The notes below the pieces were generated by a model that saw nothing but the letters and a program-made list of their open reading frames with translations, searched no databases and was not told where the DNA came from. 64,000 nt of DNA from positions 3,410,001 to 3,474,000 of the forward strand of contig NC_090364.1 in assembly GCF_035084215.1 (NCBI RefSeq). The letters are read 5' to 3'. The position numbers and the translations under genes are program-made. Within the stretch, counting starts at the first letter, position 1, and the number at the start of each line of letters is the position of its first letter. The stretch is from Heptranchias perlo (Eukaryota). Positions 58,801 through 63,057 of the stretch are shown here, piece by piece.

Positions 58801-60829
58801 CTCTCCTCTATTTGCTCTTGCCCATGTCGGGGATGGATTTTTGCACCGGAAATGATGGCGGAAAGTGGAACGAGTGCTAAAATGGGAGGTGAACCGCGTT
58901 ACGGCTCCTTGGTCCCATTCTCGCTGCCACCTGTCCGATTGGCACCACAATATCAGGCGGAGCTTGGTTGGAAAATCTAGACCATAAAGATCTGATCCCA
59001 GTAACTCCCAGATACCTCAACTTGCTGACGCTAAAAGATCGCGGTGCTCTGATTTAGGATTCAGCCACCAATCAGGCAAACCTCCAGGACAAACCAACGA
59101 GTGAGAAGTATCAGCACAGATAGGGCTGCCTGGGCTTTGAGAGCTGGAGTTACCAGGGATTGGAGCCCAGAATTGATAATAGGCTGTGTAGCTTAGAGAC
59201 CCCTGTGTCTAATTGTCCCACTTTAGTGTCCAGCTGCATTTTGACCATTCCTAGTGTTTTGGTCAGGCAGGTTACTCTTTCAGTAAAGATCAGAAGGTCA
59301 TGGGTTCAAGTCCTACTGCAGAGACTTGGGCACATAAGCCAGGTTGACACATCCGTGCCAGTACTGAGGGAGTGCACTGTCGGAGGTGCCGTCTTTCGGA
59401 TGAGACGTTAAACATTTGCTCTCTCGGGTGGGTGTAAAAGATCCCACGGCCACTATTCGAAGGAGAGCAGGGGAGTTCTCCCCGGTGTCCTGGGCCAATA
59501 TTTATCCCTCAACCAACATCACTAAAAAACAGATTATCTGACCGTTATCACATTGCTGTTTGTGGGATCTTGCTGTGCACAAATTGGCTGCCGTGTTTCC
59601 TACAACAGTGACTACATTTCAAAAGTACTTCATTGGCTGTAAAGCACTTTGGGACGTCCTGGGGTCATGAAAGGCACTACATAAATGCAAGTTCTTTCTT
59701 TCTAAAGAAGCTTTTCCTGATATCCGAGATTACCTTATATCTGAAGGGACTGGACCCAATACAGGACCGCACATTTAAAAGTGATTGATCGACTGTCGAT
59801 TGTCACACTTGCTGATTGGAGCTCTGCGAGTGAGACACTAAGAAACTGTGAAAAGAGACGGAGGGAAAGGAAGAATGAGAAATGAAAAGAGGAGTTCCCC
59901 TAGTGGCTCGGTGGGTATCTGCGAAGCCCAGCACGATACTGACCCACCTTACGCAGGAAGGTCGCAGGGTCAAACCCTGTGCTGAGTCAGCTGATCTCAC
60001 TCCAGGGTGCTGATAGGCATGTTACAATTGACCTCAAATGCCCCTTGGAGTAGGGAGTGTAAAAATTAGACGATGTTTCTGCTCCTTTGTCACTATCGAG
60101 TGCCACGTGTGCAGTTTGTACAAGGACAGCATCCAGCTTGATTAGAGTTGCCAACCCTCCAGGATTGGCCTGGAGTCTCCAGGAATTGACGATTAATCAT
60201 CTGGACACTGCAAGGATCAAAAACCAGGGAGAAAAATCATAGGGCCCTTAAGTAGAATTGTGTGTTTCTTCCATTTTCTTTGAACACTTTTAGTCATAAA
60301 AATATTGGCGATGGGTAAAAAGGCTGTTCTACCGAATCAGTCAAGAATCATCCAATCGGGCAAATGAAGACTCTATTCACTTTCCATTTGGCCGTGGGAT
60401 GGCGGGGCACCTCGAGGATGGGCGACCAATGGCGAGAGCGTATGGGGGGGGCAGGGCAGTTGGAGGCAGGCGGTCATGTGATGAAGCCTCCGGGAATACC
60501 TCCGAGTAGAGTTGGCAACCATACCTGTGATGCCTGCCACAGTTGAGTGGCCTGCCGACAGTCACTTTCTCGGCTCGCCCTTGAAGACTCGAGGGAGGTG
60601 CCTGTGGCACTTTACTTGGCACGAATCAACCTTTGGGAGAGGAAATGGGGGGGGGGGGTGGGAAAAGAAACAAAAGGTTTCAGTGGTGACAAGAGAAAGT
60701 GAAAGTTTAACCAGTATGCGTTGGTCTAATCAGTAATGAGAAAAATCTGCCAGATTGTTAGATGCACTAATAAAGCAGAGAGGAAGAGAGCAGAGAGCTG
60801 CAGCATTGATCAGAAGAATTGAGGAAACC

Positions 60830-60832
60830 ATG
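60830..60832 (+). CDS. PSMA1-like coding exon 1 (start codon only)
   Basis: aaaccATG|gtgaga: Kozak plus donor directly after the ATG, supplying the Met that exon 2 lacks. Confidence 0.6.
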
Positions 60833-61204
60833 GTGAGAATCTTTTACCTTATTAACGGCCACAACCCAGGTGTACCCAGAAGACGAGAGGAACAGGCAGT
60901 CCGAGCCCTGAAACTGTTTTATTTTTGAAGGAACAGGTGGCAAGATATTTTATATTCCGTCCAAATAATTCATTCTGGACTTCTTAAAATATGAAATTAA
61001 TTTGAAAGTGTTTGTGGTTTTATTTCCAAGACAATTAACTGGTGTTGGGAGGTTAGTGTTCTGGAATTAGATTGCAGATGGGATTAGTTTTACTAAGAAA
61101 TCCTGCAGATAGTTTCACTTCCATTTAAGGGCCGGTCAGCCCGGAGAACACCGGCTTGTAGCTGAAACAAGAGCGGACGCTGGTGATGGTGAAACAAAAT
61201 GGTG

Positions 61205-61299
61205 AAGTGCTGGAAACACTCAGCAGGTCAGACAACATCTGCGGAGAGGGAGAGAGAAACAGAGTTAAAGGTTTCAGCTCGATGGCCTTTCATCAGAAC
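61205..61299 (-). mobile_element. Second Penelope-like remnant with degenerate hammerhead core
   Basis: Minus strand gttCTGATGAaaggccatcgagctGAAAcctttaac next to ctgacctgctgagtgtttccagca. Confidence 0.55.
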
Positions 61300-61494
61300 C
61301 CGATCACTGACTCGCAGCCTGGATTTCAGGAGGGTCCCTCGGTGGACAATAACAACTGGGAGAAAGAGAGAGAGAGACAAAGAAGACAATCGTTAGGTTT
61401 CAGCACTGCTGACCCATTTTAAAGGGGCAGGCCACCTTTGTTGTGGTTGGAGGGGTGGGAGTGAAAATGCTTACAAGACCAGTAAACGACACAA

Positions 61495-62400
61495 CAACAA
61501 CAACCACTTGCATTTATATAGCGCCTTTAACGTAGTAAAACGTCCCAAGGCGCTTCACAGGAGCGATTATCAAACAAAATTTCGCACCGAGCCACAAAAG
61601 GAGATATTAGGACAGGTGACCACAAGCTTGGTCAAAGAGGTAGGTTTTAATGAGTGTTTTAAAGGAGGAGAGAGAGGCGGAGAGGTTTAGGGAGGGAATT
61701 CCAGAGCTTAGGGCCCAGGCAGCTGAAGGCACGGCCGCCGATGGTGGAGCGAAGAAAATTGGGAATGCGCAAGAGGCAAAAATTGGAGGAGCGCAGAGAT
61801 CTGGGAGGGTTGTAGGGCTGGAGGAGGTTACAGAGATAGGGAGGGGCGAGGTCCTGGAGGAATTTGAAAGCAAAGATGGGAATTTTAAAATCAGGGTGTT
61901 CCCGGACCGGGAGCCGATGTAGGTCAGCGAGCACAGGGGGTGATGGGAGAACGGGACTTGGTGCGAGTGTTAGGATACAGGCAGCAGAGCTTTGGATGAG
62001 CTCAAGTTTATGGAGGGTAAAAAGATGGGAGGCCGGCCAGGAGAGCATTGGAATAGAGGTAACAAAGGCATGGATGAGGGTTTCACCAGCAGATGAGCTG
62101 AGGCAGGGGCAGAGACAGGTGATGTTACGGAGGTGGAAGTAGGCGGTCTTGGTGATGGAGCAGATATGTGTTCGGAAGCTCATCTCATGGTCAAATAGGA
62201 CGCCAAGTTTGCGAACGGTTTGGTTCAGCCTCAGACAGTGGCCAGGGAGAGGGATGGAGTCGGAGGCCTAGGGAACGGAGTTTGTGGCAGGGACCGAAGA
62301 CAATGGCTTTGGTCTTCCCAATATTGGAGGAAATTTTTGCTCATCTAATACTGGATGTCGGACAAGCAGTGTGACAAATGAGAAACAGTGGAGGGGTCGA
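61495..62400 (-). mobile_element. L2-clade LINE 3' fragment
   Basis: ORF 61659-62183 KTAYFHLRNI...LIHAFVTS...APPYLCNLL..GGRAFS..GPKLWNSLP. Confidence 0.88.
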
Positions 62401-62592
62401 TGGGATGTGGATGGGGAAACGTATCGTGTGACACGTACGCTGGGGGATGGCGCAGCGTGGAAAAAAAGTTGTGAAGCACTTTTGTCTCCTGGGCGATGTC
62501 CCTTTAAGGCGGTTTCGATCCAGATGTTGTGCGACGCAATTTAATGGATGAGTCGATTTTTTAAAATTAATTTGTTTTGCTCTTTCTTTCAG

Positions 62593-62637
62593 TTTCGGAA
62601 TCAGTACGACAGTGATGTCACCACCTGGAGCCCGCAG
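62593..62637 (+). CDS. PSMA1: Proteasome subunit alpha type-1 (alpha6)-like, coding exon 2 (FRNQYDSDVTTWSPQ); gene continues beyond the window
   Basis: Strong acceptor ttttgctctttctttcag|, 45 nt, donor CAG|gtactg; 13/15 identical to vertebrate PSMA1 FRNQYDNDVTVWSPQ. Confidence 0.85.
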
Positions 62638-63057
62638 GTACTGGCGCAGCGCGCTGGCATGAGCAAGTGCGGGCCGCCATTTTAACCCTTCGTCACTCTT
62701 TAGTGTCAGCCATGGCTCAGCGGGTAGCACCCTCGCCTCATGATATCAGAGGGTCCTGGGTTCGAGTCCCCAATCCAGAGGTTGAGCATAAAGTCCAGGC
62801 TGACACTCTGGTGCCAGTACTGAGGGAGTGCTGCACTGTTGGAGGTGCCGTCTTTCGGATGAGATGTTAAACCGAGGGTCTAGATAGAGAGAAACTGTTC
62901 CCATTGGCAGAAGGGTCAAGGACCAGAGGACATAGATTTAAGGTGATTGACAAAAGGCGACATGAGGAAAAACTTTTTTACCCAGCAGAAGAGATTTACT
63001 AGAATGATACCAGGAAGAGGGACTTTAGTTACGTGGATAGATTGGAGAAGCTGGGGT

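Follow-up and report, generated by a model that had tools for sequence, protein, structure and literature searches.

The stretch of DNA analysed here (the window) comprises 64,000 nucleotides (nt) of Heptranchias perlo contig NC_090364.1 (C43:3410001-3474000), and its downstream end holds the beginning of a gene resembling PSMA1, the gene for the proteasome subunit alpha6. We hold with reasonable confidence that this is an intron-bearing second PSMA1 gene, without exons 3, 4 and 7 and still spliced. Its likely origin is a genome doubling early in vertebrate evolution, and in this lineage it has likely died in the recent past. The locus is likely a recent, still transcribed duplicated pseudogene that has already been annotated automatically as PSMA1-like, and the four 'coding' isoforms filed for it in RefSeq are probably products of a pseudogene. 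The gene continues into the next 10 kb downstream of the window (L008), and its parts are as follows.

60664..60832, + strand: exon 1 (at least this length), 5' leader and start ATG at 60830-60832; the contig of run X6 covers 60664-60831 and exits at the donor
62593..62637, + strand: exon 2, 45 nt, AG/GT borders, 13 of 15 residues as in PSMA1
62638..63941, + strand: intron of 1304 nt, 78% repeats, in which exons 3 and 4 (206 nt) are missing
63942..64000, + strand: first 59 nt of exon 5 (89 nt), which ends at L008:30, 30 nt beyond the window
L008:3321-3391, beyond the window: exon 6
L008:5916-6004, beyond the window: exon 8, with an inner acceptor at L008:5928
L008:7410-7514, beyond the window: exon 9
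L008:8523-8633, beyond the window: coding part of exon 10, placed by eye and from the RefSeq model
L008:8836: AATAAA

Seven of the ten exons survive, in order and without stops or frameshifts, and their borders and phases are the same as in PSMA1. The six introns, with AG/GT(GC) borders, exclude a processed copy; the combination of disabling lesions with a preserved intron-exon structure is that of a duplicated, non-processed pseudogene. The first-pass annotation of the window had proposed an exon holding only the ATG at 60830, followed by a 45-nt exon, as the start of a second alpha6 gene. Both exons proved real, as a spliced contig joins exons 1, 2 and 5, and tblastn placed four further PSMA1 exons downstream in the expected order, so that a chance resemblance can be set aside. 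A GTGAGA donor lies directly 3' of the ATG and forms the sole ATGGTRAG site in 50000-62592, whilst the leader contains three upstream ATGs (60716, 60736 and 60762), each with a stop inside the exon. Exon 2 encodes FRNQYDSDVTTWSPQ, and the two substitutions noted earlier in this N-terminal segment are N8S and V12T, relative both to the PSMA1 of the same genome and to the alpha6 chain in PDB. Exon 1 was also correctly described as lying outside a CpG island: 500-nt windows starting at 59601-61801 gave a GC content of 0.40-0.55 and a CpG observed/expected ratio of 0.32-0.59, and the ordinary PSMA1 has a CpG island approximately 4 kb upstream of exon 2 (GC 0.64, observed/expected 1.17). The missing island is at most a hint of tissue-restricted expression. 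Two other expectations failed. The sequence ...ctctgccag at the end of the window, suggested as a possible next acceptor, is internal to coding exon 5 (start at 63942), and the exon expected to follow (GRIHQ) was found at the locus neither by tblastn nor by the genome search with exon 3.

Exons 3, 4 and 7 (102+104+130 = 336 nt) account for 112 of 262 codons, or 43% of the protein. When the protein of the ordinary PSMA1 was compared by tblastn with both strands of a 314-kb region surrounding the window, exons 2, 5, 6, 8 and 9 alone were recovered, no match to exons 3, 4 or 7 rising above noise; with both strands searched, exon scrambling nearby is ruled out. Genome-wide searches with these three exons returned one match each, all on chromosome C12 and none elsewhere. 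The span from exon 2 to exon 5 is 1304 nt here versus 4680 nt in PSMA1, and no exon 7 lies between exons 6 and 8; the two gaps consist of 78% (exons 2-5) and 51% (exons 6-8) repeats, and no N letters occur in the region. The proposal of a retained subunit consequently fails for this genome, as it was to do if downstream exons were missing.

Splicing was seen in run X6, where one 334-nt contig reads exon 1, exon 2, exon 5 and exon 8 from its inner acceptor (169+45+89+30+1 = 334). The run shares its coded organism with the DNA runs that best cover the locus; its RNA type is presumed, although the contig is spliced at exon borders. Exon-2 letters stand before exon 5 in the contig, and exon 5 is followed by exon-8 letters from L008:5928. 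Two exon-1 variant letters of the contig are absent from the assembly and present in a DNA contig of run X1, which implies that exons 3-4 are likewise absent from, or skipped in, a second haplotype. The RNA nature of runs X5, X6, X21 and X23 was guessed, and they are coded contigs without tissue or level. X5 gave no cover on unique exon bins and X21 none on exon 5, neither being evidence either way, and for X7 (organism B), with low depth in unique bins in one pass and nothing in another, no claim is made.

With exon 2 joined to exon 5, the exon-1 frame runs from exon 2 directly into a TAA codon. Translation from the normal start therefore stops at this junction after 16 residues, a single open frame is lacking, and no alpha6 subunit can be made from the locus. 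The RefSeq proteins named 'proteasome subunit alpha type-1-like' (XP_067830452.1 to XP_067830455.1, isoforms X1-X4) are automatic models that read as the exons of this locus, with the same exon set and all without exons 3, 4 and 7. They differ from our reading in that RefSeq files them as coding isoforms beginning at the ATG at 62615, which is out of frame within exon 2 and also present in PSMA1, and their names omit the exon loss, the 16-residue stop and the origin of the gene. The longest alternative product, of 163 residues (P0073), covers positions 62-121 of 189 of the PF00227 profile, an incomplete domain; P0003 had no PF00227 match, and P0035 covered 1-189. Neither P0073 nor P0003 matched PF10584, the N-terminal signature that includes helix H0, as exon 3 is absent. 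A genome search with PF10584 gave seven matches, none of them PSMA1, since an intron splits the signature. AlphaFold2 run without alignments gave a predicted local distance difference test (pLDDT) score of 41.9 for the 163-residue fragment and 33.4 for a full-length coelacanth control, making the folds uninformative.

An ordinary PSMA1 lies elsewhere in the genome. A query with exon 9 found three places, namely the locus on C43, C12 at 33.13 Mb (80%) and a processed fragment on C21. On C12, all nine of exons 2-10 of a 262-residue PSMA1 were mapped, and this protein is the same as sawshark PSMA1 over 124 compared columns; the gene on C43 is accordingly not a simple ortholog, and the count of loci bears out the earlier suggestion of a distinct paralog, here an old one. 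Over 117 codons compared with C12, 94/117 residues were identical, with 24, 11 and 64 differences at the first, second and third codon positions. The proportion of synonymous differences (pS) was 0.79 (saturated) and that of nonsynonymous differences (pN) 0.13, for a pN/pS of 0.16 (bootstrap 0.11-0.24). As synonymous sites are saturated relative to PSMA1, the copy is old. The GC content at third codon positions was 0.62 at the locus versus 0.38 in the C12 gene. The C43 copy thus resembles PSMA1 (alpha6; PF10584 and PF00227) in its residues and in the borders and phases of its surviving exons, whilst it differs in lying on a separate chromosome, without a CpG island or exons 3, 4 and 7, and in a longer C-terminus, its reading frame extending 18 residues beyond the PSMA1 stop. 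In a tblastx comparison of masked C12 against C43, the 80 matches listed comprised only PSMA1 exons, repeats and noise. The fragment on C21 (41.90 Mb) is an intronless, decayed 3' part of PSMA1 (88% DNA identity over 304 nt, 12 gaps); it too is a non-functional PSMA1 copy, but it is intronless with indels, whereas the C43 locus keeps its introns and a record of long purifying selection.

The surroundings of the two genes were compared through two markers.

43102..43236 (in the stretch 43027-43251), + strand: CGRP-like peptide exon of a calcitonin-family gene, with basic flanks; upstream synteny marker
L009:5067-5174, minus strand, further downstream, beyond the window: R-Ras-family exon; downstream synteny marker

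On C12 (76 Mb) the order is calcitonin family (CALC, 32.75 Mb), phosphodiesterase (PDE, 32.86 Mb), PSMA1 (33.13 Mb), COPB1 (33.18 Mb) and R-Ras family (33.31 Mb), and on C43 (20 Mb) it is CALC (3.453 Mb), the PSMA1-like gene (3.471-3.483 Mb) and R-Ras family (3.489 Mb), so that paralogous neighbours stand in the same order on a second chromosome. The Ras exon matched R-Ras2 and then R-Ras in PDB; within the genome it is most similar (89%) to the copy at C12:33.31 Mb. No PDE match (n=68) and no COPB1 match (n=2) fell on C43. A scan with Pfam on 67 candidate exons and 149/753 long open stretches in 514 kb gave, in order on C43, a G-protein-coupled receptor (GPCR), a galectin, a weak RhoGAP, a second GPCR, YhhN and the calcitonin family upstream, and, after the PSMA1-like gene, Ras, an inward-rectifier channel, a SCAF11-like gene, IRF, Ric8, a GDSL lipase, a helix-loop-helix gene and a weak Bcl-2 match. 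The human order is CALCA-PDE3B-PSMA1-COPB1-RRAS2 on 11p15, with RRAS-SCAF1-IRF3-BCL2L12 on 19q13. Calcitonin-family and R-Ras-family genes flanking both loci fit an origin in whole-genome duplication. Pairs from the two early vertebrate rounds (2R) typically consist of one large chromosome and one microchromosome with biased gene loss, as described in the passages of PMC8302630 covered, and the sizes of C12 and C43 fit that pattern.

Likely counterparts occur outside this genome, one of them full-length. A coelacanth 'PSMA1-like' protein (P0106/P0185; Latimeria chalumnae XP_005991016.1 / H3BCB3) has both Pfam domains, unlike the truncated shark copy, and is best matched by alpha type-1. Of the 26 departures of the locus from the jawed-vertebrate consensus, 10 recur in it exactly, whereas the 12 outgroup proteins have 2-6 each; an insertion in exon 8 is placed as in the locus, and identity to the locus is 74% over 124 columns. 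N8S, R96K, I118V and D226N are common to both, and at these four sites 18 jawed-vertebrate PSMA1 proteins show little or no variation; S110G is also shared, at a site kept in 13/18. Amongst 389 proteins, only P0185 and the isoforms of the locus had more than four of seven marker residues, which is a check of specificity only, since the same two sources supplied the markers. The shark locus and P0185 paired at 85/80 in a tree of 30 rows (three of 33, from reedfish, monitor lizard and elephant shark, were dropped for mis-modelled ends), which is moderate support for a single origin. In run X23 (organism C), a 1028-nt contig matches exon 5 of the locus at 82/90 letters, the three listed differences being synonymous by eye. 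The letters before exon 5 translate as the end of exon 4 (8/31 differ from C12, all silent), and of the 30 letters after it, 27 match exon 6 of the locus versus 20 for exon 6 of C12 (by eye). Upstream of exon 5 the contig has 285 letters, which would leave room for exons 1-4 (254 nt) and a short leader. The idea of a retained paralog defining an alternative proteasome is consequently lost for this shark and survives for the lineage, in which the coelacanth protein and the organism C contig look like the same paralog.

The timing of the loss was considered from the surviving reading frame. None of its 149 codons contains a stop, a frameshift or any other point lesion, which fits neutral evolution after the lesion only if the loss is recent: the probability of 149 clean codons is 0.36 at 2% neutral divergence and 0.08 at 5%, assuming an indel rate of one tenth of substitutions. 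Together with the low pN/pS, this implies constraint for most of the life of the gene followed by a recent release, or partial constraint that persists. The same clean frame would be expected if the shortened gene were still useful, with the ATG within exon 2 (or Met87) starting a selected fragment of 128-163 residues, for example a decoy for ring neighbours or assembly chaperones. That the gene is spliced and called as four coding isoforms in RefSeq speaks for this, as does the exon-6 donor, where GT has become GC and the models use a GT 4 nt on, keeping the frame into exon 8. This donor shift and the 18-residue extension cut both ways; the extension, which the frame of the fragment runs through, is a point against its use. 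Moreover, 43% of the chain is gone, including the N-terminal signature and all but part of the Pfam domain, and the alternative ATG is ancestral, weak in context, inside the exon-1 frame and preceded by four upstream ATGs. Clean codons are expected under recent loss in any case, and if out-of-frame transcripts decay, the forms that remain to be seen would all be in frame. We regard a selected fragment as quite unlikely.

Several observations weigh against a recently dead copy of 2R origin. The exon-6 donor change leaves the downstream frame intact, and the downstream junctions of the X6 contig and of RefSeq are both in frame, as selection on a fragment would also give. The genome-wide exon searches were a loose first look, which very diverged exons elsewhere could escape. 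The R-Ras-family gene has the opposite orientation on C43. The fork that joins the shark locus to P0185 is unstarred and unites two long branches, and approximately unbiased (AU) tests rejected neither a shark-only duplication (p 0.38) nor placement of the coelacanth protein with tetrapods (p 0.39). The coelacanth record lies on a 172-Mb contig, not a microchromosome, and an ordinary coelacanth PSMA1 was absent among the matches listed in cluster look-ups (at most 15 members per cluster). No intact shark or ray copy was found among the matches listed in four protein searches (72/91 candidates; 120 listed of 257/439; 120 listed of 460/8000 scored; 150 listed of 786), and exons 3 and 7 of organism C are deduced from the length of the X23 contig only.

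It is to the tree and the AU tests that an old segmental duplication within the cartilaginous fishes would appeal, the coelacanth protein being then an independent, fast-evolving and convergent copy; the shared residues at 112, 134, 183 and 220 also occur in hagfish or invertebrates. We consider this unlikely, given the shared changes at fixed or nearly fixed sites and at S110G, the marker count (with markers picked from the two proteins themselves), the saturated synonymous sites, and the calcitonin-family and R-Ras-family pairs, by which C12 and C43 can be recognised as anciently paralogous chromosomes; C27 likewise has a calcitonin-family gene together with a PDE gene. It appears very unlikely that the species has an intact gene, with the missing exons reflecting an assembly error or a deletion private to the individual. 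Both gaps are repeat-rich, no DNA contig among the matches listed bridges that between exons 2 and 5, and organism C has a form bearing exon 4, all of which would suit such an error; but the spliced contig skips exons 3-4 whilst carrying variant letters absent from the assembly, the four RefSeq isoforms lack all three exons, the region is free of N, and the exons were not found on other contigs.

For a second PSMA1 that died recently, the following course of events is proposed. The CALC-PSMA1-RRAS block would have been doubled, probably in the 2R event of jawed vertebrates, after which the copy on the small chromosome may have lost its PDE and COPB1 neighbours, with purifying selection maintaining PSMA1 there through most of its existence. 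An intact version would occupy the alpha6 position of the ring, just as PSMA8 can stand in for alpha4. Two deletions here would then have cost the protein its helix H0, its activator pocket and most of its beta strands, on the structure-to-exon mapping that we assume; the fragment would not be expected to fold into the alpha-subunit sandwich or to assemble, and the transcript would be a target of nonsense-mediated decay.

The N-terminus of the copy keeps Tyr6-Asp7, the IT switch (Val10-Thr11) and Pro15, and N8S falls on the third position of YDR, following the residue spacing in the passages of PMC10349882 covered. In the covered part of PMC7077846, the alpha5/alpha6 pocket takes the tail of PA200. 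By our own mapping from archaeal Lys66, the pocket lysine is Lys62, which lies in the lost exon 4 here and is kept in the coelacanth protein. The other shared changes (96, 110-118, 134 and 226) are presumably away from the gate and probably at ring contacts.

An intact copy may be modelled on PSMA8 (alpha4s, of the spermatoproteasome), a vertebrate alpha paralog that swaps into the ring (PMC12650242, in the passages covered). PSMA8 differs in its ring position, alpha4, and in that its expression and assembly are established, whereas the PSMA1-like copy is known here from sequence. The covered passages of PMC12650242 describe PSMA8 and PSMB8-11 and no second alpha6. No description of a second alpha6 paralog was found among the papers listed in literature searches aimed at it; ohnolog tables in supplements (e.g. 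PMC8302630, PMC10927551) may list the gene.

Further alpha-subunit exons were encountered in the genome. First exons that we take to be PSMA6-type lie at C10:37.33 Mb and C44:3.36 Mb and encode the same N-terminus, a second retained alpha-ring paralog; one copy is presumably psma6l, a gene name in use in zebrafish papers. Three first exons that we assign, on the same footing, to the PSMA7/PSMA8 type lie at C22:13.80 Mb and at C3:4.988 and 4.995 Mb, the C3 pair being near-identical and 6.7 kb apart, either a tandem copy or an assembly duplication.

Around the locus on C43, the calcitonin-family gene (copies also on C12 and C27) is possibly another ohnolog, and the Ric8-family gene at 3.640-3.647 Mb (L054-L055), between the IRF and Bcl-2-like matches, may be a further Ric8 ohnolog. 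The window also holds a rhodopsin-family GPCR in a single open frame of 344 residues (3801-4832, - strand; no PDB match at 1e-25), a YhhN-family gene, presumably TMEM86-like, represented by two exons (26817-27317 and 34713-35213, + strand), and a strongly skewed segment at 20001-22000 (AT -0.41, GC -0.31) that is probably a simple repeat.

The locus probably marks an ancient alternative alpha6 subunit. More tentatively, jawed vertebrates may have inherited a second alpha6 from 2R that, in the coelacanth and some cartilaginous fishes, still defines a tissue-restricted proteasome so far undescribed, with N8S at a YDR-motif position and changed ring contacts, and that was lost repeatedly elsewhere, most recently by exon deletion here. 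If so, an ohnolog under selection since early in jawed-vertebrate history would provide a variant of the ring at the alpha5/alpha6 pocket, the docking site of PA200 (PMC7077846), and would represent a subunit of a complex that survived genome doubling and was then lost late.

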